Sequence record: PX880099.1
DNA from: a phage
DNA: 64,000 nucleotides
Reading direction: 5' to 3' (one strand)
In this document: positions 1 through 15,796 of the stretch, one piece after another
Layout: every line of letters begins with the position of its first letter
How positions within the stretch are numbered: position 1 is the stretch's first letter
The notes under the pieces: generated by a model
The model's input: only the letters and a program-made list of their open reading frames with translations
Databases searched by the model: none
What the model was told of the DNA's origin: nothing
Position numbers and translations under genes: made by a program

Positions 1-1167
1 ACGATCATATTGGATATAAACTCGCTCCTCGGTTACTTGCACGTCTACCACATTTTTAAATGTGTAGGTCTGTTGCGTAGTGTAGAGGACACGAACGACA
101 CTCTTCTTACCTACCGGAGGCTTCTTACGAGGCTTACGGTAACGTGGTTTAGGGTTGTTAGTTGGAAGCCAACCAACAATATCCCGATCATATCCAACAT
201 GACCCCAAGTGAAATGCGTAGCCGATCCACTATCCGTAGTTCCGTCACGAAAGAGAACTTCTACGTGACCACCACAAGGGCGGTGTCCACCATTATTATA
301 GTTGTATTTTGCCGTGCGCGGGAGAATGAAGTATTCTTTAATCGCCCACTCTTCCAGATTGTCGATATTCCAAGTGAATACTGTTCCCTTAGCAACATCT
401 GTTTGACCATTGTTGAAGCGAACCTGCACGAAATCTTCCGAAGGCATAACACCTGTGTTCGGCAGATATTCAAATGCAGTATCTTCCGCTACAAACTGTT
501 CTTCCTCTTGCTCCTCAATACTTGGCACAGGCGCAGCTTCATCGTATTTCGCAGCAAACATATTTTTAAATTCTTGAGCCGTGACTTCTACAAGGCCGCG
601 ATCACCAGTAGCAGCAGAGTGTGGGCGTGGTAAATCCCCAACTTCAATATGCATTGCATCTAAGCCTGCTTGACGATCAAAGAAGATAACCTTGCGGAAT
701 TGTTTATCTTTATATTGTGGCAGTTCATACATACTTGGATCGATTGTCTTCAAACGTTCAGCATCTTCTGGCTTCCAGAAGCTTTTACCTGTTGCAAATC
801 TAAAGTCTACCAGTAGTTTAACAACATCTCCTAATGATAAACTATCTGCATCTACGAAAACGTCTTCGATTCCCAATAACCCTGATTTCTTAAGAATCAA
901 ATCTAACATGTAACCTCCTGTGGTTTGTTCTGCGTCTGGATAACGATCAACACTGGTGCTGGTTACACCGTTTATTTCACCAGTGGAGGCATTGTAGGAA
1001 ATATATGGGAAGGTCATATCGTTCATTGCAAAATCACCTGAACAGGTTGGATCATCTTCTCCCTCCCAGCCATACACCTTCACAATACCTTCACACAATT
1101 TGTCATACACACCAGCGCGACGTGCTGCTTCAGCAACTTCCTGTTTACGGGCAAATTTATTAATCAT
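1..1167 (-). CDS. hypothetical protein, N-terminal 389 codons (gene continues beyond window start)
   Basis: Reverse-strand frame open from ATG at 1165-1167 (AGGAGG upstream) to the window edge, translated by hand without a stop; absent from ORF track because no in-window stop. Confidence 0.55.
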   Translation of the reverse strand, partial: MINKFARKQEVAEAARRAGVYDKLCEGIVKVYGWEGEDDPTCSGDFAMNDMTFPYISYNASTGEINGVTSTSVDRYPDAEQTTGGYMLDLILKKSGLLGIEDVFVDADSLSLGDVVKLLVDFRFATGKSFWKPEDAERLKTIDPSMYELPQYKDKQFRKVIFFDRQAGLDAMHIEVGDLPRPHSAATGDRGLVEVTAQEFKNMFAAKYDEAAPVPSIEEQEEEQFVAEDTAFEYLPNTGVMPSEDFVQVRFNNGQTDVAKGTVFTWNIDNLEEWAIKEYFILPRTAKYNYNNGGHRPCGGHVEVLFRDGTTDSGSATHFTWGHVGYDRDIVGWLPTNNPKPRYRKPRKKPPVGKKSVVRVLYTTQQTYTFKNVVDVQVTEERVYIQYDR

Positions 1168-1717
1168 GATTCCTCCTGTTAATTGCCATAGATGCACGAG
1201 GTTCGGCTATGGCTGTTGCATAAATATATGGATGACCTTGTGGGGACAATCTTGTTCCGAATGACCCTAATTCTAAACCATTCATGTCTTCCACGTCAAG
1301 CCCTATTTCTGTTTCTACAATTCTTGTTTGGACTTTGTAGTAGGTCCAGAAGAAGTATCGCATTTCTTCGGCATACTCTTTCACTTCACCAAAGCTGGGA
1401 TAGAACTCAATCAACTCCAGCTTCAAGAAGATGTTGAAGTGAGAATCATCCAACACTTCCTCTGTGCGGTAACATGGTGTCAGGGCCATGTAGGGATGAC
1501 CAGCGATAAACTCGTAGCCATCCTTTTCCATTTGCAAGAATGATTGCTCGGCACTGGCAACATAAAACTTCCCATTAGGATGCCCCAAAGGAGCATCTTC
1601 TTTGCCAGGTGGCAGTGTGAATGCCAAAATATCTGCATCCACTAAATAAGGAACATCTAACATTTCAGCAAAGCGTCCATAACTCTGGATGGCTTCGGCA
1701 ATCACACCTGTGTTCAT
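1160..1717 (-). CDS. class II aminoacyl-tRNA-synthetase-like catalytic-core protein (function unknown)
   Basis: 185 aa; motif-2-like CYRTEE...ELIEF and motif-3-like GLELGSFGTRL; SD before ATG; start overlaps upstream stop. Confidence 0.4.
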   Translation of the reverse strand: MNTGVIAEAIQSYGRFAEMLDVPYLVDADILAFTLPPGKEDAPLGHPNGKFYVASAEQSFLQMEKDGYEFIAGHPYMALTPCYRTEEVLDDSHFNIFLKLELIEFYPSFGEVKEYAEEMRYFFWTYYKVQTRIVETEIGLDVEDMNGLELGSFGTRLSPQGHPYIYATAIAEPRASMAINRRNHD

Positions 1718-1965
1718 GACCTTCCTCCTGTGCGGAAAGCGCGTTTAGTAATGTTGGACATAATGATTAAATCTTGTAAAGTCATATCTGGGAACTGTTG
1801 TTCTAAAACTCCCTCGACAGCCCCTATAATATCTGACAATTCAACAAGTTGCATTATTTTGCAATCCTGCTCAACAGCATCAAAAAGTTCTTCTACTTCC
1901 TCTTTAATCTTTTCTATGCTGCCATAAGGTTGTTTCTTAATGTCTGTTATGTGATACCCTGCCAT
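1714..1965 (-). CDS. small protein, possibly MazG-like NTP pyrophosphohydrolase fold
   Basis: 83 aa, EEVEELFDAVEQD...LSDIIG pattern; SD before ATG. Confidence 0.3.
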   Translation of the reverse strand: MAGYHITDIKKQPYGSIEKIKEEVEELFDAVEQDCKIMQLVELSDIIGAVEGVLEQQFPDMTLQDLIIMSNITKRAFRTGGRS

Positions 1966-3558
1966 TTAACGATCCTCTCTGATTTGATTAATCTTACGAG
2001 CAAGGGCAGCTATAAGCTTATCTTCTTCAGATACAGGAGCCGTGCTCTTACCTAAACGATGCATGTCTAAAATCTCTTGAACAGTTCGGTTCCATTGCAG
2101 ACATTTAATACAACGTGTATGTGCAACATACAGAAGATTTCGTTCTGATTCTTCAAGACCTACCCACTCACCCTTCTTATCGTAATTAGAAGGGAAGTCA
2201 TTTGCAACAATAACCTGATCCCATTCCAAACCTTTTGATTTGTGGGCTGTAGTTAAAGTAACTTTAGCCGTTGGAGAGTTACGGTGCATACGTAAAGTGT
2301 ATGCAATATTATTAGCTTTACCAGAAACAACAATGTTTAAAAGTCGTTTTGCATCAGGATCTGATTCTGCACACTCTACAAATTCTTCCCAAGAAGTGTA
2401 AGGTAGAACTGTCTCATGCTTAACTTTGTCCAAATCACCTCTACGTAAAGCATTAACACTATCAACCATAGAAATGAAATCTTTGGTATCTACGTTAATA
2501 ATAATCTCTTCTCCGTTAGCGATTCGGTCCATAGCTTCGAGCAACAGGGTCAAATTCTTACGGAAAATAATGGTGTAAGGTTTACTATAATCTACCACAT
2601 CAGAATGAAAACTTCCAGTGACAGTATCATAACCTTTCCCTACCAGCGGATGCTTCAGAGGTGAGCGATCAGAAAGGATCGCATTAGCAATGTCCGCAAC
2701 TTTAGGACCAAAGCGAAAACAAGCTGTCAGAGGCAACTCAACCCCATATGTAGCCGTTTGCTTCATCATGTTCTGGCTTCCACGGAACTGATAAATACTC
2801 TGAAACTCATCACCCACAACAACAATACGTTTAGCCGATTTAGCATTGCGAAGGATAGACAGGAATGCAGGGTTAACATCCTGGAATTCATCTCCAAAAA
2901 TAATATCGTATCCTAAATCTTCTTTACTCAATTCAAAGAGTTTCACATAGGTGTCATGAGTCATAATGGTTTCTGATTTAGGATCAATACGCTCACGCCA
3001 AAGTTGCTTCGCATATTTAACAACTTCGTTAATAAGTTTTTGTTCGTTGATGTTCTTACGTTTAAGATCTGACATATGCACTTTAGGAAAATGTTTATGT
3101 CCAATATGTTCATCGTCAGAAAACTCGTATTTAGCTAAAGTTTGTTTTACCATTAACCCGATCATTGCACGAGTCAGTAGCACTTTACCATTCTTATCAA
3201 TCAAGTTCTGAATCTTGAATTTTTTGGCAATCTCACTACCAGTTCCAGCTACGTTAACATATTGACCTTCTGGACGAGACAATTTGTGTCGAAGGTTTTG
3301 TGGAAGACGCTGGTAACAGATTGAATGTAGCGTTCGGCACATAACATTAGGCGGCATTTTACGTCGAGCTTCCTCTGCCATACTTTTGTTAAACGCCAAG
3401 TATAGAATACTATCATTTGTGCCATTAGCCAACATATACAGCGTTGACGTTTTACCTGATCCAGATTTAGCTTGAATTGTAACGAAACGATTTTCTTGAT
3501 ACCCACTTTCAATAGCGTATTGTTCGTCGGTAGGTGTAAAACTCAATTGTGTAGACAC
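1966..3558 (-). CDS. UvrD/Rep-family SF1 DNA helicase
   Basis: 530 aa; Walker A AKSGSGKT, DEFQD box, VGDEFQSIYQFRGS, KSKGLEWDQV, VAHTRC; GTG start with strong SD. Confidence 0.85.
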   Translation of the reverse strand: MSTQLSFTPTDEQYAIESGYQENRFVTIQAKSGSGKTSTLYMLANGTNDSILYLAFNKSMAEEARRKMPPNVMCRTLHSICYQRLPQNLRHKLSRPEGQYVNVAGTGSEIAKKFKIQNLIDKNGKVLLTRAMIGLMVKQTLAKYEFSDDEHIGHKHFPKVHMSDLKRKNINEQKLINEVVKYAKQLWRERIDPKSETIMTHDTYVKLFELSKEDLGYDIIFGDEFQDVNPAFLSILRNAKSAKRIVVVGDEFQSIYQFRGSQNMMKQTATYGVELPLTACFRFGPKVADIANAILSDRSPLKHPLVGKGYDTVTGSFHSDVVDYSKPYTIIFRKNLTLLLEAMDRIANGEEIIINVDTKDFISMVDSVNALRRGDLDKVKHETVLPYTSWEEFVECAESDPDAKRLLNIVVSGKANNIAYTLRMHRNSPTAKVTLTTAHKSKGLEWDQVIVANDFPSNYDKKGEWVGLEESERNLLYVAHTRCIKCLQWNRTVQEILDMHRLGKSTAPVSEEDKLIAALARKINQIREDR

Positions 3559-3572
3559 GTATTTCTCCTCTC

Positions 3573-4082
3573 TTAATAAAAACTCTTGACAATCCTCATC
3601 ATTTCCTTAGCTCTGCTGGCATAAGGTTCTTTTAGATTAGGTGGCAAATGTGCATTAATGTATCCCATTTGTTTTTCCCATGTCCACTTATCTTTAAATC
3701 TTGGCATGGTATCTCCTGCTAAACTGTTTTCTTTTCGTGTTTGAATAATCCAATTACATGGAAAATGCACACCACCTTTACGGAAGGGAATATAATGTCC
3801 CAATGTGAATGCCTTATTGTTCTTTAAACGTCCAGCTAAATTAAGATTAACAATAAGACTACGAAACACATAGTATTGATAAAGATTGTCAACAGTATAT
3901 ACAGAGTAGTATGCTCTAAGTGCATTATCTCTACTAAGATTACCAACATCCAAACTGCACCAGTTTAAATTACTTGGATCATAGTTGTGATTATCAATCC
4001 ATTCTTCTCTTTCCTCAAATTCTGCATTAACAGCAGATTGCCCTGCTGTAGATACAAAAAGAGAATTTGCATCAAAGAACAT
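3573..4082 (-). CDS. hypothetical protein
   Basis: 169 aa ORF, SD AAGGAGGGAG before ATG. Confidence 0.55.
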   Translation of the reverse strand: MFFDANSLFVSTAGQSAVNAEFEEREEWIDNHNYDPSNLNWCSLDVGNLSRDNALRAYYSVYTVDNLYQYYVFRSLIVNLNLAGRLKNNKAFTLGHYIPFRKGGVHFPCNWIIQTRKENSLAGDTMPRFKDKWTWEKQMGYINAHLPPNLKEPYASRAKEMMRIVKSFY

Positions 4083-4092
4083 ACTCCCTCCT

Positions 4093-4446
4093 TTAGTTTA
4101 CATCGTTTAGAGCATTACCAATCTTTAAGATAATAACATCGTTAAGGGCTTCTTCTCCATTAAGGCCAGAGAAAGCAGGAGTAACGAAAGTTACCATATA
4201 ATAATGGTCTTCTTGTAGGATTGCGATAACGCCGTCTAGTTTAACATCTCCTGTGAAACGAAAAACTTTCAACTTTTGTTCTAAAGGAAGATCTCCTTCA
4301 ACATTTAAAACCATATCTCCAACACCAAACTTTTCTGCCCCGATGTAGATGTAAGCTTGGTCCTCTTTTTTATGATAATACAGTGTTGCTTGTTTGTCTT
4401 GTAGTGTTGTGATACCAAACACATCTACATCAATAATATTTTTCAA
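4093..4446 (-). CDS. hypothetical protein (probable TTG start)
   Basis: Track ORF 4093-4503 overlaps upstream gene by 61 nt; GGAGGAG followed by TTG at 4444-4446 gives a TTGA-coupled start. Confidence 0.4.
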   Translation of the reverse strand: MKNIIDVDVFGITTLQDKQATLYYHKKEDQAYIYIGAEKFGVGDMVLNVEGDLPLEQKLKVFRFTGDVKLDGVIAILQEDHYYMVTFVTPAFSGLNGEEALNDVIILKIGNALNDVN

Positions 4447-4811
4447 AAATTCTCCTCCCAAATCCAATAATTGTCTACATAAGTAGGATGCCTTTTGTCC
4501 CACTCTTTTCTAGCCCAAGCCACGGCTGCTATCAATACATCTCCATGACAAGGTTGAGGGGAGCAGAAGCAAACTAAATCTTTCCCTTCTAGCTCTAATA
4601 AATCTTCAAGAGTGATCTTACCACAACGAATTTGCTCCCACAACCACTCTTTATACCTTTGTATAGTTGATCCTCGTGGTTCATCATCTTTTAACTTAAA
4701 AGGGTTTGCAAACTTGGAGGCTTTTAGTCCCATATGTGGCATTGCTCTACCAATATAAACAGCACCTTCTGGGATTGTTTTGCCTAAATGGTAAAAGTTT
4801 AATACCTTCAT
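4443..4811 (-). CDS. DUF4326-family protein
   Basis: 122 aa; VYIGR...ANPF...CFCSPQPCHGDVL pattern typical of DUF4326. Confidence 0.65.
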   Translation of the reverse strand: MKVLNFYHLGKTIPEGAVYIGRAMPHMGLKASKFANPFKLKDDEPRGSTIQRYKEWLWEQIRCGKITLEDLLELEGKDLVCFCSPQPCHGDVLIAAVAWARKEWDKRHPTYVDNYWIWEENF

Positions 4812-4812
4812 A

Positions 4813-5175
4813 TTAACCTAAACACATACGTGCGATCAGACCTTGAATTAGTTTATCTGCTTCTTCTCGATCATAGTCGGTATCTTCTATACCACCATCT
4901 TCGTCACGATAAACTTTACCTTCCAGGTACCCAGCATCGATCAAACCAATAATCAAATCGAACTGCCAACAAGAATTACCGAAAGGACGTTTTCCACTGA
5001 AACTGTCTTCTTCTTCCCAAAGTGTAGAGAGCAGTCGTCTGAAATATTCACGCACAGTAACAGTGCCAAGATCATCGTCTTCAAAAACAACATCTAAAGC
5101 ATCTGGTTCAGCTTTATCTACAACAGGCACATAACGTTGACCATTAATAACAACATCTACAATCGTTTCTCTCAT
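4813..5175 (-). CDS. hypothetical protein
   Basis: 120 aa ORF, SD GAAGGAGG before ATG. Confidence 0.55.
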   Translation of the reverse strand: MRETIVDVVINGQRYVPVVDKAEPDALDVVFEDDDLGTVTVREYFRRLLSTLWEEEDSFSGKRPFGNSCWQFDLIIGLIDAGYLEGKVYRDEDGGIEDTDYDREEADKLIQGLIARMCLG

Positions 5176-5531
5176 TTTTCCTCCTTCTTGTATTCTAAGA
5201 ACATGTCAACTTCATAAGCTGCCCGTTCATTAAATTTACTAGGATCTACTAAAATAAAAAGTTGTTTATTTATATCTTGAAACTCTTTTACTACAATGTA
5301 AAGGTGTTTCTTACAAGAGAAGCCTGTTGCTTGATAAGCATCGCCCCAATCATCCACACCTTTTAATGTTTCTACATACTTACATTTTATTTTATCTTTA
5401 CCGTCTTGGTAAAGTGCTTCACCTCCGAACCATGTGAAGAATTTAGTGCGATCTGCCCCAACCTTAAAGCCGTCACGAGCAAAAACACCAGTAGAGGCTA
5501 ATAACAGCAAGGCAAACAGCACTTTTCTCAT
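5172..5531 (-). CDS. secreted protein with N-terminal signal peptide
   Basis: MRKVLFALLLLASTGVFA signal-like N-terminus; ATG at 5529-5531 with GAGGAG SD (track start is an upstream GTG). Confidence 0.55.
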   Translation of the reverse strand: MRKVLFALLLLASTGVFARDGFKVGADRTKFFTWFGGEALYQDGKDKIKCKYVETLKGVDDWGDAYQATGFSCKKHLYIVVKEFQDINKQLFILVDPSKFNERAAYEVDMFLEYKKEEK

Positions 5532-5839
5532 CACATCTCCTCGTCGGACTTCAAGGCTTTAGAGAATACTACATTAAACATTTCACCGCAACCATTATTA
5601 ACATAATACATGATGTAATTATCATCTTCGTCTACAGGCGCACGATACTCCAATTCATAACTATACAGATTAGAATTACTTGTGCAACCTTGTGGATACC
5701 AAAAGTAAAGTTCACCACAAGATTCTACCCATTTAAGACCAGTCCGATCTTCAAACACCAATGTAGAAGGGTTTTCTGAATCTTTCACAGCTTCTTCATA
5801 CTGTTGATGTACCATAACTGCTAATGATAATGTACTCAT
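5531..5839 (-). CDS. hypothetical protein
   Basis: ORF with GGAGG SD; start re-picked to ATG (MSTLSL). Confidence 0.5.
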   Translation of the reverse strand: MSTLSLAVMVHQQYEEAVKDSENPSTLVFEDRTGLKWVESCGELYFWYPQGCTSNSNLYSYELEYRAPVDEDDNYIMYYVNNGCGEMFNVVFSKALKSDEEM

Positions 5840-6012
5840 CACGCCTCCAAATAGTGTTTACAAATGACAAAACGCCATGTTTGTTTATAATAGTCTCTTT
5901 TTTCAAGAGCCTCTTTGTAAGAGGGTATACGTTGCGACAGAAGCATCCATTCACAATCTGCACCCATTCTTCCATAAAGCGCGTAACGGATGTTACTTTG
6001 TTTATCTCCCAT
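5839..6012 (-). CDS. small hypothetical protein (57 aa)
   Basis: Hand-translated ORF MGDKQSNIRYALYGRMGADCEW..., AAGGAGG SD; below track length cutoff. Confidence 0.4.
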   Translation of the reverse strand: MGDKQSNIRYALYGRMGADCEWMLLSQRIPSYKEALEKRDYYKQTWRFVICKHYLEA

Positions 6013-6055
6013 AAATGCCTCCTTAATCTTGTTTACAAGTATACCCTCTAATTAG

Positions 6056-6253
6056 TTACACTTTTTCCCAAGTACCAAAAGCACAGGAAGGGTAGATTCC
6101 AACTTGAGGGTTTCCGTTATCATCTTTGAAAGTAAAACTGTTGTTGTCTTTATCAAGAACTGTAGAATAAATCTTACCAACAGTAACGCAGTTGGAAGCT
6201 TGACCCAGTTCAGTAAGAGTAAGACATTTCATTTTCTGTTTCTTTGTAGCCAT
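6056..6253 (-). CDS. hypothetical protein
   Basis: 65 aa ORF, SD AAGGAGAC before ATG. Confidence 0.5.
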   Translation of the reverse strand: MATKKQKMKCLTLTELGQASNCVTVGKIYSTVLDKDNNSFTFKDDNGNPQVGIYPSCAFGTWEKV

Positions 6254-6335
6254 TTATAAAGTCTCCTTAGTAAGTGAATCTTTATTCTCCACAAAGAGCT
6301 TTGCACATGTCAAGTAACTCTTTGTGAGATTAATC

Positions 6336-6605
6336 TTAATGATTGATGATGTTGATGACGATCTTAGTTTCAACCTTAGCCCAACAGGAATCTGCTTCAT
6401 TAAAACGACTATTTGCAATGTATTCTCCTGCACGAGAACCTGTTAAGCAAACTGCACCTGTATCTGTAGCTAAGTAGTAGTCCCGTTCTTGTTCATTTAC
6501 TTCTGAGTTGTAGTAATAGAAAACAGACATAGGTTCAATTTCAGATAAACGGTATAACTTTGGAACAGGGGATTTCTCGATAAACTCAACAGAAGTTTTA
6601 CTCAT
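6336..6605 (-). CDS. hypothetical protein
   Basis: 89 aa ORF, SD AGGAGAA. Confidence 0.5.
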   Translation of the reverse strand: MSKTSVEFIEKSPVPKLYRLSEIEPMSVFYYYNSEVNEQERDYYLATDTGAVCLTGSRAGEYIANSRFNEADSCWAKVETKIVINIINH

Positions 6606-6799
6606 TTGTTTTCTCCTAGATCTAAACTAATTAAGAAGTCACGAAGGATGATCATTTGTTCTGTAGACAATGATAATACACCTTCTCCATAAATATCACC
6701 AGACCATTCAGCAGTTAGATCTAGTGTACCAGTACCAGGAAACCAATCAATAGTGATCTGATTACCATTAGAGTCAGGTAGTATTTCACTGACTAACAT
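6602..6799 (-). CDS. hypothetical protein
   Basis: Start re-picked to internal ATG (MLVSEIL) which has a strong SD AATAGGAGAG; track start lacks SD. Confidence 0.45.
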   Translation of the reverse strand: MLVSEILPDSNGNQITIDWFPGTGTLDLTAEWSGDIYGEGVLSLSTEQMIILRDFLISLDLGENK

Positions 6800-6915
6800 A
6801 ACACACTCTCCTATTATTGTTCTTGATCTTACGATCATCTACCGATAAGAACAAGTACTTAAATCTCTGTTCTTCGAACATCTAACGATAGAGATTAATC
6901 TATTACATAATCTAT

Positions 6916-6972
6916 ACTCGCTATCGCTCGACCCTTCGGGGTTAGGGTAGCATATTTTTTGAAAAAAGTCAA
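6916..6972. repeat. conserved 57-bp element, copy 1 (ACTCGCTATCGCTCG - hairpin - TAGGGTAGCATATTTTTTGAAAAAAGTCAA)
   Basis: About 88 percent identical to 43085-43141; internal hairpin ACCC-TTCG-GGGT differs in sequence but not position from copy 2. Confidence 0.6.
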
Positions 6973-7292
6973 CACTTATTTTTGGTAAGTAGATAAATCA
7001 ATTGTTCACCTGCTTCTGGTGCATATAGTGCTTTAGTATCGAAGTCAAAGAAGTGAGTGACTCCTGTTACTTTGGATGCCTGAATAGATAATCGTGCAAG
7101 CTTAAGCAGATTATCCATTTCTGCAATCTTTGCACGAAACACTGCACGTGTAGCGTCAAAAGCTGCATGTGGCATGTATTTACGATTTAGACTACTACGT
7201 TTAAATTTACGATAATCTGCAATGATCTTGTTACGTTCTTTGTTCAAGTGCTTTACCAGTGCAGTGTATACATGTGGTTCTTTGTTAGCCAT
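6969..7292 (-). CDS. hypothetical basic protein
   Basis: Start re-picked to ATG (MANKEPH) preceded by GAGGAG. Confidence 0.5.
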   Translation of the reverse strand: MANKEPHVYTALVKHLNKERNKIIADYRKFKRSSLNRKYMPHAAFDATRAVFRAKIAEMDNLLKLARLSIQASKVTGVTHFFDFDTKALYAPEAGEQLIYLLTKNKC

Positions 7293-7497
7293 TGTTAATC
7301 TCCTCTTCATATGTTGGTAGTGCATGGTATGCGATCACAGGTGCCAAGTCAAAATAAAAATGACCATTGATAACAGCTATCGTGCCATTGCGTGTTTTGT
7401 TAACTTCACAAAATCCCTTCTTGCCGTTTGCCATGATTACAAGCCACTCTCCGATAGGAACATCCTCGGTACCAGATACTTTAATCCATCCACTCAC
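7285..7497 (-). CDS. hypothetical protein (GTG start)
   Basis: 70 aa ORF, AGGGGAAG SD before GTG. Confidence 0.45.
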   Translation of the reverse strand: MSGWIKVSGTEDVPIGEWLVIMANGKKGFCEVNKTRNGTIAVINGHFYFDLAPVIAYHALPTYEEEINNG

Positions 7498-7751
7498 TTT
7501 ACTTCCCCTTTGTAATCGGACACTATACCAGGTCTTACTTTTGCCTTAAGATGTTTCAACTCTACCATAGGAGTTGCCACTTGTATAGGGCTAACTTCAA
7601 CCTTGTAGATAGTATATTCATAAGTCGCATATTTACCGATGGAATGCAAATACTTAATTGCGTGTTCAGGGGAATCTGCTTCAACATACCCTAAATCTTT
7701 CGTAGTACGACCTTCGGTATCGCCTTCAGTGGTTACGTGATAAAGTGTCAT
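7494..7751 (-). CDS. hypothetical protein
   Basis: 85 aa ORF, SD GAAGGAGG. Confidence 0.5.
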   Translation of the reverse strand: MTLYHVTTEGDTEGRTTKDLGYVEADSPEHAIKYLHSIGKYATYEYTIYKVEVSPIQVATPMVELKHLKAKVRPGIVSDYKGEVK

Positions 7752-8071
7752 AAAACCTCCTTCTGGTTGGCTGCTTCAATCATAACGTTAAGAGTCTCCA
7801 TACCGCTTTCAACTGCTTGAGCAATCTCTTGGAACACTGTTTTCTTAAAGATGTATAAAGATCCTGCCTGTAAGCGTTGCACACAGCATAAGAGGGTTTG
7901 GTGATCCATAACAAAGTCTCCATAAGCACAATCAATTTTCCCTGTGATTGGGTTGTCTCGTGAGCGAGGATCGTATTCTAATGTGATATGCGTTACACCA
8001 GGTAAAGTAACAAACTGACAACGGATGTTGACACGTGGTGCAATTGACACGCTAAACAAACTGTTTGACAT
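7748..8071 (-). CDS. hypothetical protein
   Basis: 107 aa ORF, SD GAGGAGG. Confidence 0.5.
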   Translation of the reverse strand: MSNSLFSVSIAPRVNIRCQFVTLPGVTHITLEYDPRSRDNPITGKIDCAYGDFVMDHQTLLCCVQRLQAGSLYIFKKTVFQEIAQAVESGMETLNVMIEAANQKEVL

Positions 8072-8218
8072 TTAAACCTCCTCGTAGTAAGGCAAAGTTT
8101 TGATCAGCTGTTCTGAAGTGCCATTCTCTGTCCATGTAACCCCGTTGTCAAGAGAAACATACCCTTTCTTATCGATAAATTTACGGAGACAACCAGTGAA
8201 CTTGTTTTTGTAGATCAT
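8072..8218 (-). CDS. small hypothetical protein (48 aa)
   Basis: Hand-translated MIYKNKFTGCLRKF..., fills the gap between flanking genes, ATGA overlap. Confidence 0.4.
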   Translation of the reverse strand: MIYKNKFTGCLRKFIDKKGYVSLDNGVTWTENGTSEQLIKTLPYYEEV

Positions 8219-8649
8219 TTCTTCTTTCCTTTCTTTAATTTGTTGTGACCTTTACCCTTATAAAGCTTGTGATTACGAGCAGATGGGTTATTTTGGTTCT
8301 CCAGTCGGCTAACAGGTGTATTCCAAAGATTTCCTGCTACAAAAGATGCTGCCACAAGTTCTTCCAGGTATACAAAATCCAAAGCAGGTATCTTTGTTTC
8401 CCTCATCTTGCGTTCTACATTAGACAACACGCCTTCTTCCTTACTGTCTTCTTTTTCAATTACAGACCAACCCTCTTCCTGCCAAGCTTCCCCTCTGAAC
8501 CAAGTTTCCATGTTATAACCTTGTTCGTCGAGAATAACACCATCTCGCATCTCAAACCATTCACCACCGCAAAAATAACTGTGCTCAACACGTCTACCTT
8601 CCTTCATTGCTTCTTTAGCTTCGGTCCAAGTCAGTTTGATGTTTTGCAT
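8215..8649 (-). CDS. DUF2829-like protein (possible Tad2-type signal-sequestering anti-defence protein) with basic C-terminal tail
   Basis: N-terminal WTEAKEAMKEGRRV...GEW and later EEGWSVIE resemble DUF2829; first gene after the promoter at 8680-8707. Confidence 0.45.
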   Translation of the reverse strand: MQNIKLTWTEAKEAMKEGRRVEHSYFCGGEWFEMRDGVILDEQGYNMETWFRGEAWQEEGWSVIEKEDSKEEGVLSNVERKMRETKIPALDFVYLEELVAASFVAGNLWNTPVSRLENQNNPSARNHKLYKGKGHNKLKKGKKK

Positions 8650-8679
8650 TTGTTTTCTCCTCTTGTTTTGTATGAGTTG

Positions 8680-8707
8680 ATCTTAACAGGACTAAAAAGC
8701 ATGTCAA
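8680..8707 (-). promoter_or_regulatory. sigma70-type promoter for the minus-strand operon (TTGACA-16-TAAGAT)
   Basis: Reverse complement reads TTGACATGCTTTTTAGTCCTGTTAAGAT, same architecture as the PeSL promoters. Confidence 0.45.
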
Positions 8708-8763
8708 TACTTGATCTGAAATTATTTTCAGGTATCATATATGAACATTAACAAGAGAGGTAG

Positions 8764-9057
8764 ATGATGAACATTACTTTAGCAACTAAGAATATTTCTG
8801 AGACAATTAACGGTTTTGGTGTCATTGTAGCCTTACACGGTAACAACGAGAAATGGTTGGCTTCTTTTGAAGAGGATCGTCAGCACAACATTATTTTAGA
8901 TGCTCCTATAAAAGTTATGCATATCGTTGGTGAAAGCAAAGTGCTCACTTCCTCCCGTTCAAAAGAACAAATTACAAATGAATTAGTAAAACTGCTTGAC
9001 AATGTTCTTAACATGTTTGATAATGCACCCATCGATACAAAACGTGTCTTAATGTGA
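8764..9057 (+). CDS. hypothetical protein
   Basis: 97 aa ORF, SD AGAGAGG. Confidence 0.5.
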   Translation: MMNITLATKNISETINGFGVIVALHGNNEKWLASFEEDRQHNIILDAPIKVMHIVGESKVLTSSRSKEQITNELVKLLDNVLNMFDNAPIDTKRVLM

Positions 9058-9069
9058 GAGGAGAACCAA

Positions 9070-9357
9070 ATGTATTATTCACAAAATGAAGTAGCAAACA
9101 TTAAACTGGCAGTTGGCGATCTTATTGTGTCACCTAACTACCATTGGGATAACACAGACTTGGTTGAAGTAGTAACTCATGTTGGGTTTGAGGGTGTTGT
9201 GCTCTACACCCTGGGTGGAGGTGTTGTTGGGGAAATGGAACGTTATACAACGACCAAGAAACTGGTAAGTTCTTATCGTATGTTCTTGCATCAAGGCTCA
9301 GAAGAGTATGCAACCTTCTTGTTGAAATTGGACGCAGATCGGGAGAAGGCACGATGA
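9070..9357 (+). CDS. hypothetical protein
   Basis: 95 aa ORF, SD GAGAGGAG. Confidence 0.5.
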   Translation: MYYSQNEVANIKLAVGDLIVSPNYHWDNTDLVEVVTHVGFEGVVLYTLGGGVVGEMERYTTTKKLVSSYRMFLHQGSEEYATFLLKLDADREKAR

Positions 9358-9710
9358 AAATTGTACACGATGAAATTCAAATAGAAGAAAGTGACCTGAT
9401 GGATTTGGATGCAGCTTTGGGGAAGGTAATCTATGCAGGAATTAAAGCCTTCCGTGAGAAGGCAAACAATAGCACGTTTGTCATGATCCCCACTAAACTG
9501 ATGCGTGTTTTGTATCCAAATAGAAGTGCGCCGTATACAGATGAAGAAGAGGAGACAGGTAGAAGAGAGTGGTTAAATATTTTAGAAAAGATGGAGAATG
9601 CTTTTATTGATAGTGGTAATCCAGAAATCGTGTATACTGAAGATCAAAGGAAGGCACGGTTAGAGGGCCGTCTTTTATTCGCTAGTTATTTTGATAATCT
9701 TTGGAGCTAA
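9354..9710 (+). CDS. hypothetical protein
   Basis: 118 aa ORF, ATGA overlap with upstream stop. Confidence 0.5.
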   Translation: MKIVHDEIQIEESDLMDLDAALGKVIYAGIKAFREKANNSTFVMIPTKLMRVLYPNRSAPYTDEEEETGRREWLNILEKMENAFIDSGNPEIVYTEDQRKARLEGRLLFASYFDNLWS

Positions 9711-9712
9711 AT

Positions 9713-9889
9713 ATGTCTGAATTCTTCACAATGGCTTTCTTAGGGATCTATCTGATTATTAGTGCTGTTGGCTTAATCATGTCTCTAATAGAGGAAATGG
9801 GAATTAAGTGGAATTGTGCATTCGGTATAGCTCTTATGCTCACTCCGGTTTGGATCTACATCTGCAAAGCAGTTGAACTCATTGGTTAA
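9713..9889 (+). CDS. small membrane protein
   Basis: Hydrophobic MSEFFTMAFLGIYLIISAVGLIM...; start re-picked to ATG after GGAG. Confidence 0.45.
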   Translation: MSEFFTMAFLGIYLIISAVGLIMSLIEEMGIKWNCAFGIALMLTPVWIYICKAVELIG

Positions 9890-9899
9890 TGGAGGTAAT

Positions 9900-10238
9900 A
9901 TGTTTAGTAAAGAAATGAGAGAGGTGATCGCTACTCTGGTAGTAGATCATGGTGTTGAAGTTGAGCGTCACGTTTGGAAAGATGAGCCTCCTTTCTTTGA
10001 TTTGGCATCACGGGCTAAAAGTCACATGTATCTCCTTGAAGATGATAAGGATTTTATTCTGCGTATGCGTTATGATCGAGAGTTTAGAATTCCTCTTGAC
10101 ACAGATCCTGATGATGTAGTATTGTGGTTGGCAGAGCATTTCGCATTTAACGCTCTACATGGAAGAAGTTTTGGTAATGAACGTTGGGATACCATTTGTC
10201 GTAAACATAATATTGAACCAGAATACGGGAGTATGTAA
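9900..10238 (+). CDS. hypothetical protein
   Basis: Start re-picked to ATG (MFSKEM) after AATGGAGG. Confidence 0.5.
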   Translation: MFSKEMREVIATLVVDHGVEVERHVWKDEPPFFDLASRAKSHMYLLEDDKDFILRMRYDREFRIPLDTDPDDVVLWLAEHFAFNALHGRSFGNERWDTICRKHNIEPEYGSM

Positions 10239-10489
10239 TGTTAAGTATCAAACCTAAAATGATTACTGAAGATCAAAAAGATTACATTTATAAATGTGGT
10301 CGGGTGTGGAAAGAATACACTAAAGGTAATGAAGTTATTGTAGTTACGGAACATGCTATTTCTTTATCAGATCTTTTTGGTGATTATTTGCAAGTCATTA
10401 AAATTGGTATTGACAGAGGTTTGGTGCAGGTGTTAACATTATCCCAAGTTGAAGCAGAACACTTAGACAAAATCATTGTCGAGTTCTAA
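10238..10489 (+). CDS. hypothetical protein
   Basis: 83 aa ORF, TAATG overlap. Confidence 0.5.
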   Translation: MLSIKPKMITEDQKDYIYKCGRVWKEYTKGNEVIVVTEHAISLSDLFGDYLQVIKIGIDRGLVQVLTLSQVEAEHLDKIIVEF

Positions 10490-10502
10490 GAGGAGAAAGA
10501 AT

Positions 10503-10667
10503 ATGATCTCTTTAGAATCAATAGCTTTTAAGAAGGGGTATACCGCAGGGTTCAAGTTTGGTATGTTTAATAAAGTAAATCCATATTGTCCAATGACACA
10601 CAAAAAGGAATTCGAAGAATGGGAAGATGGATTTTCTAAAGGCTATCAGGCAAAAGGTTGGTTGTAA
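10503..10667 (+). CDS. small hypothetical protein
   Basis: Start re-picked to ATG (MISLES) after AGAGGAGAAAG. Confidence 0.45.
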   Translation: MISLESIAFKKGYTAGFKFGMFNKVNPYCPMTHKKEFEEWEDGFSKGYQAKGWL

Positions 10668-10676
10668 GGAGAGAAT

Positions 10677-10841
10677 ATGATTTTAAACTTCATCATCAAC
10701 TTGTGTTTGACATTGGGGTTACTCTGTGCAATAGTATCCCCTTTGGTTGGTGAATATTGTTCTGAACTGGCGATGTTTATAGTTCTTGGTGCGGCTATTG
10801 CTAATATGTTTGTCGCTGCGATTTGTATGTTGTGGGAATAG
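10677..10841 (+). CDS. small hydrophobic membrane protein (54 aa)
   Basis: Hand-translated MILNFIINLCLTLGLLCAIV..., SD AAGGAGAG. Confidence 0.4.
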   Translation: MILNFIINLCLTLGLLCAIVSPLVGEYCSELAMFIVLGAAIANMFVAAICMLWE

Positions 10842-10852
10842 GAGGGAAGTTT

Positions 10853-11209
10853 ATGAAAAAACTAATCTTAGCCACATTGCTGGCTACCGTAAGCTTCACC
10901 ACTTACGCTCAAAAATTTGTAGCAGTTAAAACAGATATTGGTAAAGATGTTGTGATCACAGGCAACAAGTTTTACTATACACCTGGGAATGGTGTTCTAG
11001 AAGAGTGTAAAGATGTTGAGGCATATACGGGAAAAGAAGATAACACGGAACGTCCTTTTTATTCGATTATAGCTACTTGCAAAAATGAAATAGTAGCTAT
11101 TAAACAATACAAAGATGCCCCTGGAGGAGAATACTTATTAGTCAAGAATATTAAGAGTGAAAAAACTGCAAAGTTTACAGTAATTATTTTAAAAGGAGAA
11201 ACGTTCTAA
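10853..11209 (+). CDS. secreted protein with signal peptide
   Basis: MKKLILATLLATVSFTTYA signal-like N-terminus; SD GGAGGGAAG. Confidence 0.55.
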   Translation: MKKLILATLLATVSFTTYAQKFVAVKTDIGKDVVITGNKFYYTPGNGVLEECKDVEAYTGKEDNTERPFYSIIATCKNEIVAIKQYKDAPGGEYLLVKNIKSEKTAKFTVIILKGETF

Positions 11210-12348
11210 TGAAATACACTATTTTTGGAGATGTAGCTGTTGTAAATAAGGAATATGGCGTTGAAGCTAATAAACTTCCTGCTGGAGTTTGGGTTGTCAA
11301 CTGCGATCCGCACGGTAACTACTCTTTAGTGCGTGGTGAAAGTTTCTCTCTTCCGAACACTCTTTATGGGGAAACTAAAGATCGCGCCGCACATGTTATT
11401 AAAACATTTGCTCGTCGTAGTAAAGAAGGTAAAAATACTGGGGTGTTACTGACAGGGACAAAAGGCAGTGGTAAGACGATGTTAGCTAAACTTATTAGCA
11501 TGTCTCTAATGTCCACAGAAGGTTTAGGTATTCCAACCATTTTGGTTACACAGCCTTACACAGATGCTGGCTTCTTAGAATTTATGAGTAAAATTACAGA
11601 TCGTGCTGTTGTTTTATTTGACGAATTTGATAAAGTGTACGCTAAGAAAGAAGATCAGGAAGCACTGTTGACCTTGTTGGATGGAACAGGAAGTGGGAAT
11701 AAACTTTACATCCTCACTAAAAATAGTGGTTATATCTCGGAATATTTTGTAAACCGTCCTAGTCGTATCTACTACAGTTTCAATTACGATAAACTGTCTA
11801 GTGAAACTATGTTAGATTACTTGGATAAGAACTTGGTAAATAAAAAGCACGTAGATAACTTCCAACGTTTATGGGATGTTAGCACAGAGTTGTCTTTCGA
11901 TGTTATTCAAGGCATTGTAGAAGAATTGAATTTCTATCCAAAAATGACTTTTAAAGAATGTCTTGAAATGATGGGTATTTCTTTAGGGAACGATGCTAAA
12001 TGGAATGTGGCTTCTATCGTAGCTAATGGCAAAACCTTGAAGGTGAATTGGATCAATAACTGGCACGACTTCACCCCTACTAAGTTTTTGTCGGGCGCTT
12101 GTTCCCTGAACATCTATCTACAAAGTTTGAAAGATGATGAAGTGGAAGCAATGGAAACCAACAGTTATGTTATCCTGGATGAAGATGGTGATCCACATAT
12201 TGATCTATGTGCAACGGCTGATGGTCTAACTTGTGATCTGATTGAAGGTGGTAAGATTCTGGTTATGAGCACTACACCAGGAAACACTTTGCGAGTGGTG
12301 CTGGAGCCTGTAACACAACGTTCCACTACACTTGGTAGCGTGTTCTAA
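11209..12348 (+). CDS. AAA-type ATPase
   Basis: 379 aa; Walker A GTKGSGKT, Walker B VVLFDEFDK. Confidence 0.6.
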   Translation: MKYTIFGDVAVVNKEYGVEANKLPAGVWVVNCDPHGNYSLVRGESFSLPNTLYGETKDRAAHVIKTFARRSKEGKNTGVLLTGTKGSGKTMLAKLISMSLMSTEGLGIPTILVTQPYTDAGFLEFMSKITDRAVVLFDEFDKVYAKKEDQEALLTLLDGTGSGNKLYILTKNSGYISEYFVNRPSRIYYSFNYDKLSSETMLDYLDKNLVNKKHVDNFQRLWDVSTELSFDVIQGIVEELNFYPKMTFKECLEMMGISLGNDAKWNVASIVANGKTLKVNWINNWHDFTPTKFLSGACSLNIYLQSLKDDEVEAMETNSYVILDEDGDPHIDLCATADGLTCDLIEGGKILVMSTTPGNTLRVVLEPVTQRSTTLGSVF

Positions 12349-12353
12349 TAAAG

Positions 12354-12378
12354 ATGCCCCGCAAGGGGCATTTGTTAT
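12354..12378 (+). terminator. rho-independent terminator-like hairpin
   Basis: ATGCCCC-GCAA-GGGGCAT followed by TTGTTAT. Confidence 0.5.
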
Positions 12379-12438
12379 GGAGGGATTTTAGTTATTCTTT
12401 TGTTGTAGGCTCGCACTAATAGCTAAAGGGGGGGAGGT

Positions 12439-13899
12439 GTGCCAAAAATAGTCACTTGGGAACAATATAAAACAGATATAAAACAAGCTTATCAAGGTAA
12501 GTCTTGGACTGTTGTAGATTATATTGAGCCGTGGAACGGCAATAAAACTAAACTTAGATGCATCTGTGCTCTGCATGGAGAATGGAAAACAACAAGCATA
12601 AATACCGCTAAACTAGGGAGGGGTTGTCCAGAATGCGGTAGGGAGATTATAAGTAAAGCAGTATCTATAAACAAATCAAAAACCTGGGAGCAATATAAAG
12701 AAGAAGTGCAAACCACTTACAATCAGGCAGGTAAGTTTTGGACTGTTACAGGATGGCACGGAGAATGGAAAGGATGGAATACTAAACTGGTTTGTTGTTG
12801 TGCTTTACATGGGGAGTGGAGGTCTACTTCTATATCTTCTGCGAAAAACGGGAGTGGATGCAGGAAGTGTATGGGAGAAGCAAACAGAGAAAGAACATCG
12901 ATTGCATGGGAGCAATATAAAGAAGAAGTAGAAGAAGCTTATAAAGAAAAACCCTGGATTGTTAGAGGCTATGTGGAACCGTGGAACGGTTCCCGCACTA
13001 AGTTGATTTGTGAGTGTAAGGTTCATGGTCAATGGTGCACTACCACTGTAAACAGTGCTAAACAAGGGACTGGATGCTACAGTTGTCAAAGAGAAATGAC
13101 GAAACAAAGGAATACAATGGAGGATAAACAACATGTTGAAGATTTTATAAAAGCTTGTCCTGATAATGTAGAGCGTAAATATTATCGTAGCGATAGAGTA
13201 GATAGATTAGGTCGTCAGGTTTACTGGATTGTAGAATGTCCTATATGTGCAGAGGATGATTATTGTAAAGAAGGCTTATGCGATAATAAATTTGAGATGA
13301 AGATGAGTCATTTGAAAAGGGGTGGCCTTCCTTGCCGTTGTTCTAAATATTATCATTACACTCCTGAACAATGGGCCTACCGTATGACCAAAGCTTGCCA
13401 GGAACGAGGGGATCAATTTATAGGATTCATTGATAAGGTAAGCAATAACAGCAAGTTTAAATATCTATGTAGGGAGCATGGAGAGCAAACGATCACACCT
13501 ACCGATTATCTCAATGGGAAAGGTTGTCCAGGCTGTAAGAACAGAAATATGCAAGAATTTTACATCAATATTATTCTTGATGAGTACGGAGAAGACACGG
13601 GAGCTTACAAGTTGGGGATTGCAAAGGACAGTGATATCAGGATCAAAGGGCAGAATGCAAACAACAATTACTCTATGCGCCGTATAGCATTGTTCGATCT
13701 GCCGTCCTACCAAGCTTGCAGGGCGTTAGAGAGTAAGCTAAAGTCTAAGACTGATCAGATTCTACCGTCTATTGGCTGTGTAGAACGCTTGCACATGAAA
13801 GATGGTCATAGTGAAACCTTCCTGCGCGAGGATTTGGCTATCGTCTTAAGTGCTATCAACCAAGCAGGTGGAATAATGAGAGAGGAGGAAACATGTTAG
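12439..13899 (+). CDS. cysteine-rich protein with three tandem about 70-aa modules, probable zinc-binding (GTG start)
   Basis: Module WEQYK...EPWNG..TKL.C.C..HGEW.T......G.GC..C repeated three times, then a Cys-rich C-terminal half. Confidence 0.55.
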   Translation: MPKIVTWEQYKTDIKQAYQGKSWTVVDYIEPWNGNKTKLRCICALHGEWKTTSINTAKLGRGCPECGREIISKAVSINKSKTWEQYKEEVQTTYNQAGKFWTVTGWHGEWKGWNTKLVCCCALHGEWRSTSISSAKNGSGCRKCMGEANRERTSIAWEQYKEEVEEAYKEKPWIVRGYVEPWNGSRTKLICECKVHGQWCTTTVNSAKQGTGCYSCQREMTKQRNTMEDKQHVEDFIKACPDNVERKYYRSDRVDRLGRQVYWIVECPICAEDDYCKEGLCDNKFEMKMSHLKRGGLPCRCSKYYHYTPEQWAYRMTKACQERGDQFIGFIDKVSNNSKFKYLCREHGEQTITPTDYLNGKGCPGCKNRNMQEFYINIILDEYGEDTGAYKLGIAKDSDIRIKGQNANNNYSMRRIALFDLPSYQACRALESKLKSKTDQILPSIGCVERLHMKDGHSETFLREDLAIVLSAINQAGGIMREEETC

Positions 13900-14258
13900 T
13901 TGACGTTCAAATTATGCGCAACGAAAGAATGGACTTCTTTGAAGCAGTAGAGAAACATCTGATCAGATGGGACTATGAATTTGTTCCTGCTGGATGTGGA
14001 CCAGTAGAGCATTTAGCGGAAGACGACGATGTATACATGATCATTCGTCAAGTGTACCAGACAGACCAGTGTGAAGAAACTCCCGAACTGATTTTGTTTG
14101 AGTGTAAAGATCTTGCAAAATATTTTGACTATGGCGGAAAAGAGGGTCATAATCTCTCCAGATACAATAAACGTCTACTTATCTTAGACTACATGCGGAA
14201 CAACAAACACAAACTCATCGACGCAGACGCAGTTTATGGCTACTGGTGGATGGACTAA
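13893..14258 (+). CDS. hypothetical protein
   Basis: 121 aa ORF, SD GAGAGGAGG. Confidence 0.5.
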   Translation: MLVDVQIMRNERMDFFEAVEKHLIRWDYEFVPAGCGPVEHLAEDDDVYMIIRQVYQTDQCEETPELILFECKDLAKYFDYGGKEGHNLSRYNKRLLILDYMRNNKHKLIDADAVYGYWWMD

Positions 14259-14271
14259 CAAAGGAGAAACT

Positions 14272-14451
14272 ATGGCACGTTTAGCAGATCATGAAATCTT
14301 TAAACCTATTCTGAACCACTATGATGAACTTAAAGCAGTGTTGGATTGTTATAGAGAGGATGAAGAACGTTTGGAAGTCAATCTTAAGATAGTTCTGATG
14401 AAAGCTTTTCAAGACGGGCAAGCTAAAGTTTTAGAAGGCATGAAAAAATGA
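14272..14451 (+). CDS. small hypothetical protein
   Basis: Start re-picked to ATG (MARLADHE) after AAAGGAGAA. Confidence 0.45.
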   Translation: MARLADHEIFKPILNHYDELKAVLDCYREDEERLEVNLKIVLMKAFQDGQAKVLEGMKK

Positions 14452-14990
14452 GAATAACTGATGAATATGTATTCTTCTTTTCACATAAAGATGTGTTTAG
14501 TAATTGGTATATTGCACCCTTTACAGAAACTGAACCAGGTTACAATGAGACTTTCTGTTGTGTTGAGCAATATATGATGTGGCGTAAGGCTTTGCTGTTC
14601 AAGGATCATGCGATTGCAGCAGCTATCCTTGATCACTCAACTATACGTGACAACGAGAGGAAACAAGCATACTACAAACGTATGGGTCGAGCGGTATCTG
14701 GTTTTAATAATGATATGTGGGAAGAGAACCGTGAGCGTATTGTTATGCGAGGCTTATGCTTGAAATATGTACAGAATCCAGATTTGTATGCAGACTTACA
14801 CCTTTACCAATACAAAACGTTTGTTGAAGCAAATCCTTACGATAAGGTTTACGGTATTGGAATGGGAATGTATGAACCAGGGGTGCTAAACCCTGCTACC
14901 TGGAAAGGGCAGAATCTTTTAGGCAAATATCATAATAAACTGATCGAAATACTTTTCCCAGACAAAATACCGCAAAGACGATATTTGTGA
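14448..14990 (+). CDS. NADAR-domain (YbiA/DUF1768-like) protein, candidate ADP-ribose-processing enzyme
   Basis: 180 aa; FFFSHKDVFSNWYIAPF, CVEQYMMWRKALLF, W..NRERIVMRGLCLKY.QNPDL, GIGMG...W.GQNLLGK match the NADAR pattern. Confidence 0.7.
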   Translation: MRITDEYVFFFSHKDVFSNWYIAPFTETEPGYNETFCCVEQYMMWRKALLFKDHAIAAAILDHSTIRDNERKQAYYKRMGRAVSGFNNDMWEENRERIVMRGLCLKYVQNPDLYADLHLYQYKTFVEANPYDKVYGIGMGMYEPGVLNPATWKGQNLLGKYHNKLIEILFPDKIPQRRYL

Positions 14991-15233
14991 TATTTTAACT
15001 TTTTTCATTTTTAGAACAAAGGTGTCACTTTGTAGCACAGAAATAAGGCTCCTACAGCACCGTAGAGAGCCTGTTATTTTGTCCTATACAAACCCTTGTC
15101 TTTTTCAGTTTGCATCACTAGGATTCGATCTGAGTGGGTTCCTGAAGGTTTACCAATAAGATTAAAGGTTATATCAAATTCCCACTATCTTTTATCTCAA
15201 AAATCCCTCAAATTATTTAAACTTTTTAAGAAT

Positions 15234-15418
15234 TTACAAAAGTGAAAGTTGAAAACCAAAATTTAAAGTTTAGGAAAATTATCTTAAAATGTTAGATACA
15301 AAACAAAACTCAAAAGTCAAGGAAAATTTTAAAAATTTTGCGCGCCCACAGTATTTAAAGTTTTTTTGCTTTTACAAAAATGAAAGTACAAAAGCAAAAT
15401 TTAAAGTTTACAAAAATT
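15234..15418. repeat. pair of about 48-bp direct repeats (15234-15280 and 15371-15418) in an AT-rich non-coding region
   Basis: TTTACAAAAGTGAAAGTTGAAAACCAAAATTTAAAGTTTAGGAAAATT vs TTTACAAAAATGAAAGTACAAAAGCAAAATTTAAAGTTTACAAAAATT. Confidence 0.6.
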
Positions 15419-15433
15419 TTTATGCAGGTGAAA

Positions 15434-15761: not shown

Positions 15762-15767
15762 TAAAAC

Positions 15768-15796
15768 AGTATAAGCCCGATCCCTGGGCTTGTCAA
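15768..15796 (-). promoter_or_regulatory. sigma70-type promoter on minus strand (TTGACA-17-TATACT)
   Basis: Reverse complement reads TTGACAAGCCCAGGGATCGGGCTTATACT. Confidence 0.5.

Follow-up and report, generated by a model that had tools for sequence, protein, structure and literature searches.

The DNA analyzed here, herein referred to as the window, is a stretch of 64,000 nucleotides from a phage (sequence record PX880099.1), and at positions 1160-1965 its minus strand encodes two small proteins of 185 and 83 amino acids (aa). The larger one (1160..1717; PHROG 4806) is a trimmed catalytic core of a bacterial-type seryl-tRNA synthetase (SerRS), in which the class II fold and motifs 1-3 of aminoacyl-tRNA synthetases (aaRSs) are kept. 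The smaller one (1714..1965; PHROG 6408) is a probable HisE/MazG-like protein of the all-α nucleoside triphosphate (NTP) pyrophosphohydrolase type. The identity of the core and its pairing with the small protein can be stated with high confidence, and with equal confidence the two proteins form an obligate pair, which is best explained as one virus-specific two-component enzyme. For the function of this pair we tentatively favor, at somewhat less than even chances, a seryl-adenylate-forming ligase and an NTP pyrophosphohydrolase that would act on a nucleotide-type acceptor and not in canonical charging of tRNA-Ser. The earlier suggestion of a ligase that modifies a nucleotide or nucleic acid is partly supported.

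With the single 185-aa sequence as a query, nothing was found in Pfam or the Protein Data Bank (PDB), and no Pfam aaRS family was significant for this protein; its relationship is visible only by family profiles and structure. The family profile of the 185-aa protein matches the SerRS of Aquifex (E = 4e-5), and the profile search with the core family produced matches to SerRS, AspRS, and PylRS. The core has the class II antiparallel β-sheet catalytic fold flanked by helices, together with motifs 1-3, and an anticodon-binding domain is absent. Thus, the original prediction of a class II aaRS catalytic core devoid of such a domain holds. The comparison with class II paralogs that it proposed led to SerRS, AspRS, and PylRS, but HisRS and HisZ gave no match at E ≤ 10.

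The core was compared with SerRS of Escherichia coli (EcSerRS, serS) by hidden Markov model alignment and by profile-anchored L-INS-i alignment, and residue conservation was counted over 253 unique family members. Simple pairwise MAFFT and global hmmalign misplaced the C-terminal half of the core; the profile-anchored L-INS-i alignment resolved its placement. Motif 1 is AEMLDVPYLVD (1637..1669; this and all following features of the pair are on the minus strand), with P23, the equivalent of EcSerRS P196, found in 243 of the 253 members and VPYLVD corresponding to VPYLVN of EcSerRS. The equivalent of the serine-binding 'TxE' is located in VASAEQSF (1538..1561), where the invariant S55 and E57 (both 253/253) correspond to T237 and E239. 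Motif 2, ALTPCYRTEE-VLDDSH-FNIFLKLE (1415..1486), has a shortened loop, and its residues R84, E86, F97, K99, and E101 are aligned to R268, E270, F287, K289, and E291 (R84 and F97, 253/253; E101, 252/253). The earlier call of CYRTEE...EF as motif 2 is therefore correct, being aligned to EcSerRS R268-E291. The segment GLELGSFGTRL (residues 147-157), previously taken for motif 3, proved to be the Mg/ATP-binding strand GLELGSFGTR (1250..1279), in which E149 (251/253), S152 (252/253), and R156 are the equivalents of E355, S358, and R368. The true motif 3 is YATAIAEPRAS (residues 166-176; 1190..1222), with T168 and R174, each conserved in 252 members, in place of S391 and R397. A further equivalence in the alignment is that of D141 to D342.

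In the crystal structure of EcSerRS with SerSA, residues T237, E239, R268, E291, and S391 touch the seryl moiety, F287 stacks on the adenine, and R397 ends the conserved motif 3 segment (Cain et al., bioRxiv 10.1101/586255). The Mg2+ ligand described in the same work is Glu349 of SaSerRS, the counterpart of EcSerRS E355. The equivalents of the seryl-adenylate site in the core family, namely S55, E57, R84, F97, E101, T168, and R174, are each found in 252-253 of the 253 members. As aligned, the core retains every SerRS residue that holds serine, the adenine ring, the α-phosphate, and Mg2+, and, judged from residue conservation, this SerRS-type active site is under strong purifying selection.

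Other parts of SerRS are absent from the core family. The alignment begins at approximately EcSerRS residue 173, and the N-terminal 173 residues, to which the coiled-coil arm for binding of tRNA-Ser belongs, are missing; only 21 residues are found ahead of motif 1, compared with 194 in EcSerRS. The motif 2 loop has 10 residues in the 185-aa protein and 9-10 residues in 95% of the family, versus 16 in EcSerRS. Two segments before motif 3 are shorter than in EcSerRS by approximately 16 and 17 residues, and the C-terminal tail is shorter by 22 residues. In total, the core has 185 aa, versus approximately 260 aa for the corresponding part of SerRS. Because the N-terminal arm, the residues of the motif 2 loop, the loops, and the tail have been removed, the 185-aa protein is essentially a bare seryl-adenylate site, neither a HisZ-like degenerate domain nor equipped as a canonical SerRS.

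These features bear on two alternative explanations. The deposited labels of the 185-aa protein are 'hypothetical', 'putative seryl-tRNA synthetase', 'putative tRNA synthetase', and, for PHROG 4806, 'histidyl tRNA synthetase'; the latter has been propagated into many RefSeq and pharokka annotations. One phage genome paper accepts the SerRS label as given, repeats 'SerRS' and 'MazG' as separate functions, and reads the gene as a translation function (PMC8953757). Taken at their word, these labels describe an active histidyl- or seryl-tRNA synthetase that adds to the translation capacity of the host, which is hardly credible for a protein of 185 aa with all tRNA-recognition modules absent, no significant Pfam aaRS family, and no HisRS match by profile. 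Moreover, the obligate HisE-like partner would stay unexplained, and the database labels 'histidyl' and 'seryl tRNA synthetase' are considered unsupported. According to the second alternative, the core is a regulatory pseudo-synthetase that, like HisZ with HisG, serves only as a sensor of serine and/or ATP and exerts allosteric control over pyrophosphate hydrolysis by its partner. Such a role is improbable, since residues needless for a sensor (the motif 2 Arg, the motif 3 Arg, and the Mg-binding Glu and Ser) are kept in 251-253 of the 253 members, and the profile search pointed to SerRS, AspRS, and PylRS but not to HisRS or HisZ.

Conservation of the small protein was counted over 95 unique copies. 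Its N-terminal G-Y-H motif (1951..1959) includes Y4 and H5, both found in 94 copies. The first acidic motif, E22-E23-x-x-E26 (EExxE), is preceded by K19 and forms with it a putative metal/triphosphate-binding motif (1888..1911; K19, E22, and E26, 94/95; E23, 95/95); the EExxE segment is the part aligned to positions 32-61 of the PRA-PH profile. The second acidic motif, E42-L-S-D45 (ExxD; 1831..1842), is similarly conserved (E42, 94/95; D45, 95/95). Only three helices are predicted, with the acidic motifs on helices 17-32 and 36-57, and two motifs are family-specific, the N-terminal GYH and the C-terminal T-K-R-A-F-x-x-G-x-R. PRA-PH of Pfam matches 12 of the 23 small-protein members searched (best E = 1e-3, 17 bits, below the 21.3-bit cut-off), and HisE of NCBIfam, pointing in the same direction, matches 9 of them (best E = 2.8e-4, also below threshold). 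The PDB sequence-profile search with the small-domain alignment yielded coiled-coil noise only. The nearest profile and fold matches of the small protein are probably the HisE/MazG all-α NTP pyrophosphohydrolases, and a few depositors had also labelled it HisE/MazG-like. Thus, the earlier suggestion of a MazG-like neighbor is backed by the acidic motif and by the nearest matches, HisE/MazG, but all profile scores fall below threshold.

Two metagenomic proteins, P0221 and P0222 (154-164 aa), are tandem duplications of the small domain. Copy 1 keeps EExxE and ExxD and has lost the C-terminal TKRAF.G.R motif; in copy 2, the reverse is found. This arrangement is a single-chain pseudo-dimer with divided labor, consistent with a dimeric HisE/MazG-type unit, and the small protein is likely a dimer. 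Other long open reading frames (ORFs) with the small domain, for example RXM g119, were scanned, and no extra domain was recognized; several of these lengths were over-extended by ORF calling.

The conservation pattern of the small protein also bears on the possibility that the core is a ligase of the amino acid:carrier-protein type, placing serine onto the small partner or another protein in the manner of the SerRS-like amino acid:[carrier protein] ligases or of PoxA with EF-P. We regard this as very unlikely. The serine of the 'LSD' motif, S44, is found in 78 of the 95 copies and is replaced by Ala in 13, Cys in 3, and Thr in 1; with replacements in 17 copies, it is excluded as a site for attachment of phosphopantetheine. 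Five acidic residues of the partner are invariant and fit an enzyme active site rather than a carrier, fusions in both orders would mean single-turnover self-modification, and the serine site of the core is of the bacterial TxE type, versus the methanogen Zn-type ancestry of the carrier-protein ligases.

The pairing was analyzed in 70 loci (65 from IMG/VR and five from GenBank) belonging to 25 divergent clades of large phages at 45% identity. In 67 of the 70 loci, representing 25 clades, the small domain is encoded on the same strand and directly adjoins the core or is fused to it, mostly upstream and at times downstream. In the window, both minus-strand ORFs of 1160-1965 were confirmed, and the sequence reads as a translationally coupled pair: the TGA of the 83-aa ORF shares bases with the ATG of the 185-aa ORF in an ATGA stop/start overlap (1714-1717), and an AGGAGG Shine-Dalgarno sequence (1724-1729) lies within the 3' end of the 83-aa ORF (1714..1729 in total). 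Natural fusions have the small domain at the N-terminus (P0192) or at the C-terminus (P0148, P0157, P0160, P0169, P0182, and P0190) and a fused form is likewise present in gp131 of Ma-LMM01, in L059, and on two contigs assigned to giant-virus metagenome-assembled genomes (MAGs). The latter two, L064 and L067, are IMG/VR contigs named GVMAG-S-... from bins of giant viruses (nucleocytoplasmic large DNA viruses, NCLDV), each carrying a fused ORF of the small domain and the core. Through these fusions, the coupling of the two proteins is physical. Four core members of 235-251 aa (P0063, P0070, P0075, and P0136) have, in place of the HisE-like domain, Cys-rich, partly basic, zinc-ribbon-like C-terminal extensions, which may hint at nucleic-acid or protein binding.

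Among 50,697 phage genomes, 273 records carry the core and 269 the small protein, and the taxon counts agree. The exhaustive profile search yielded 1,585 clusters of the core family at 50% identity, nearly all of 175-200 aa; the small-domain family, equally large, comprises 2,019 clusters at 90% identity. The carriers include phAPEC8/phi92-like coliphages (among them BASEL phages), Acinetobacter T4-like therapeutic phages, phiCbK-like Caulobacter phages, Microcystis phage Ma-LMM01, cyanophages, and jumbo phages. A scan of the genomes of approximately 185,000 species yielded only four loci, all on phage-like MAG contigs, this pattern-limited scan being one that may miss divergent cellular copies, and no copies on plasmids were found in the plasmid search. 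The pair thus appears to be virus-restricted. In one locus, L077 (JGI 3300034072, contig Ga0310127_000002, 1,042,066 bp), an 89-aa gene followed by a 193-aa gene (8001-8838) sits among very large ORFs, one of them collagen-like, and beside an R2K_3 ATP-grasp gene; this contig comes either from a virus of exceptional size or from a cell whose genome carries a phage island. In two further clades, the module also has an R2K ATP-grasp gene as a neighbor.

A nucleotide-type acceptor is favored over tRNA-Ser because the elements for recognition of tRNA-Ser are gone and the invariable partner is a nucleotide-triphosphate enzyme. In the proposed mechanism, the core would make seryl-adenylate from serine and ATP and pass the seryl group to a nucleotide-type acceptor, for which a free nucleotide (at a hydroxyl or an amine) and a terminal adenosine are the candidates. 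The HisE-like subunit, probably as a dimer, would cleave the α-β pyrophosphate bond in the triphosphate form of the substrate or product; the model for this cleavage is HisE, which converts phosphoribosyl-ATP to phosphoribosyl-AMP. The pair would be made in the replication and nucleotide-metabolism phase of infection. Transcription of the fused gp131 of Ma-LMM01 falls in the 'middle' class B5, which also contains genes of replication and nucleotide metabolism (PMC5780444). The neighborhoods of the module, too, often contain genes of deoxynucleotide metabolism.

The main rival to a nucleotide-type acceptor is an action directed at tRNA, which has a real but clearly smaller probability. Here, the mini-core would serylate tRNA in a non-canonical way, the substrate being phage tRNAs, damaged or uncharged 3' ends of host tRNAs, or tRNA-Ser bound on the arm of host SerRS in a heterodimer; SerRS binds tRNA across its dimer. 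The HisE-like partner would provide an accessory or repair activity, and the role of the module would be protection of translation in infection or against tRNA-targeting defenses. Several observations favor this alternative. The full SerRS catalytic machinery is invariant, and the dimer interface in motif 1 is retained, nearly as the VPYLVN of E. coli; some members carry the zinc-ribbon-like, Cys-rich basic tails. Genes for tRNAs were found within 7 kb of the module in 14 of 60 loci. In 5 of the 25 clades, the distance to a tRNA gene is at most 1 kb, often within a tRNA array (rough binomial P of 0.007-0.1, set by the assumed background), and the module lies inside such arrays in L030, L036, L038, L037, L053/L005, and L070. 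In addition, a neighborhood theme of translation and RNA repair is seen in some clades, with RNA ligases, RlaP, a Swiss-army-knife HAD domain, R2K ATP-grasp, class I aaRS, and EF-G.

On the other side, the core has neither the tRNA-binding arm nor an anticodon-binding domain, and the motif 2 loop, which reads the acceptor stem, is truncated. Most loci have no tRNA gene nearby, and the 64-kb window (1..64000) contains neither a tRNA gene nor a match to any Rfam family at the gathering threshold, although phages of this group have many tRNA genes in other parts of the genome. Moreover, small accessory genes generally gather in the tRNA regions of large phages, and tRNA charging offers no obvious task for an NTP pyrophosphohydrolase. 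The core family is acidic (median net charge of -8), though the EcSerRS catalytic domain is equally acidic, and for this reason net charge was dropped as an argument against nucleic-acid binding. Near the module, tRNA genes with the CUA anticodon (amber suppressors, reported by ARAGORN as 'Pyl') were found at L035:48-204 and L036:971-1044, on two jumbo-phage contigs; they may point to stop-codon recoding in these phages.

Another theme of the neighborhoods, metabolism of deoxynucleoside triphosphates (dNTPs), relates to a further alternative, hypermodification of DNA bases. In this scheme, the MazG-like enzyme converts a dNTP to the monophosphate (dNMP), the ligase adds serine to the base, and the modified nucleotide enters phage DNA. 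MazG-type enzymes that feed nucleotide-modifying enzymes in this way, by converting dNTP to dNMP, are known from MazZ/PurZ and from the T4 dCTPase (gp56). NrdD and NrdG are encoded in the window, and genes for class I ribonucleotide reductase (RNR), ThyA, ThyX, DHFR, a dNMP kinase, and a MazZ-like protein adjoin the module in several other clades, with thioredoxin/glutaredoxin in KARL-1; the middle-class expression alongside nucleotide-metabolism genes fits as well. Nevertheless, this alternative is unlikely. Vequintavirinae and their relatives are 'exceptionally susceptible' to restriction-modification systems, and the sensitive group includes phi92-like phages with the module (PMC8594841). 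Furthermore, no conserved kinase or other step leading from a modified dNMP to the dNTP pool was found, and the module is shared by T4-like, phiCbK-like, cyanophage, and jumbo phages of differing DNA chemistry.

Neither all-vs-all clustering of the ORFs in the 70 loci nor a Pfam count for 284 neighbor ORFs from 25 clades revealed a third conserved gene. The best candidates, namely RlaP-type nucleotidyltransferase, NADAR, DUF4326, NAMPT, R2K ATP-grasp, and RNR, are each limited to at most 4-6 clades. The recurrence of NADAR, DUF4326 (close to the module in three clades), NAMPT, and NUDIX suggests an NAD/ADP-ribose theme of these accessory regions. Neither protein of the pair matched any known defense-system component in PADLOC.

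The source phage of the window is identified as a phAPEC8-like Escherichia myovirus; over the 3.2 kb tested, it shows 100% identity with phAPEC8_ev052, ESCO13, and ESCO5, Escherichia phages of the genus Phapecoctavirus (Stephanstirmvirinae). The minus-strand block includes, in order, genes for a UvrD-type helicase, the 83-aa protein, the 185-aa protein, and a 461-aa protein, followed by nrdD and nrdG. The 461-aa ORF (2..1167, minus strand, continuing past the window start; L001:6783-8168) shares 8 nt with the 185-aa ORF and carries the label (PHROG 15930) 'ribonucleotide reductase' or 'class III ribonucleotide reductase'. Neither Pfam nor the PDB sequences gave a match for it, and it is confined to coliphages that are phAPEC8-like or related to these; the two genes after it encode the genuine NrdD (full PF13597 match) and NrdG. 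The RNR label of this ORF looks unsupported. A DUF4326 protein (Pfam, E = 1e-21) encoded at 4443..4811 (minus strand) has the PHROG label 'ribonucleotide reductase NrdA-like'.

The new element here would be a stand-alone paralog of an aaRS catalytic core with an unprecedented obligate partner of the NTP-pyrophosphohydrolase-like type. The pair was not described in the literature examined, including the Aravind-group survey of jumbo phages (PMC7824862) and a review of aaRS paralogs (PMC9437257), a coverage outside which most subscription journals fall. Truncated aaRS paralogs, such as AsnA, HisZ, PoxA, YadB, and the amino acid:carrier-protein ligases, have repeatedly exposed unexpected biochemistry. 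The family is large, with approximately 1,600 core clusters at 50% identity and approximately 2,000 partner clusters at 90%, and is found in well-studied phage groups. Recognition of the pair leads to a directly testable hypothesis, serine-dependent adenylation together with NTP pyrophosphohydrolysis, and the natural fusion proteins are suited for biochemical and structural work. The module is possibly, though with less than even probability, a virus-specific enzyme system with chemistry new for aaRS paralogs, yielding a seryl-nucleotide metabolite or signal, or else repairing or protecting tRNA 3' ends as a counter-defense or for host takeover. A nucleotide or tRNA end as the acceptor, if confirmed, would mean that phages possess an auxiliary or counter-defense chemistry of a new type.

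Several known systems can be compared with the pair. Bacterial SerRS (E. coli SerS; PDB 2dq0, 6ote, and 1ser) has the 173-residue N-terminal part and a 16-residue motif 2 loop, whereas the core has no such part and a loop of 9-10 residues, almost always comes with a HisE/MazG-like partner, and seems confined to viruses. The SerRS-like amino acid:[carrier protein] ligases (Bll0957, PDB 3mey) descend from SerRS of the methanogen type, and the group that they acylate is the phosphopantetheine arm of a carrier protein; in contrast, the core has a bacterial TxE-type serine site, and its partner is HisE/MazG-like with no invariant Ser. In the HisZ-HisG-HisE system, HisZ is derived from HisRS and catalytically dead, whereas the core is derived from SerRS with all catalytic residues intact, and no HisG was found among the neighborhoods examined. 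With MazG and HisE, among them the MazG of phages and the MazZ of Z-genome phages, the small protein shares the EExxE...ExxD pattern, a small helical and likely dimeric subunit, and phage encoding; it differs in having three predicted helices, the GYH and TKRAFxxGxR motifs, and sub-threshold scores. In the established case of MazZ/PurZ, the pyrophosphohydrolase is functionally coupled to a nucleotide-ligating enzyme; the partner of the small protein is of the aaRS type and not a PurA-type ligase. A parallel in concept is provided by YadB/GluQRS, PoxA/EpmA, and AsnA, in which an aaRS core without recognition of the tRNA anticodon serves a non-canonical acceptor: a modified base in tRNA, a lysine of EF-P, and ammonia, respectively.

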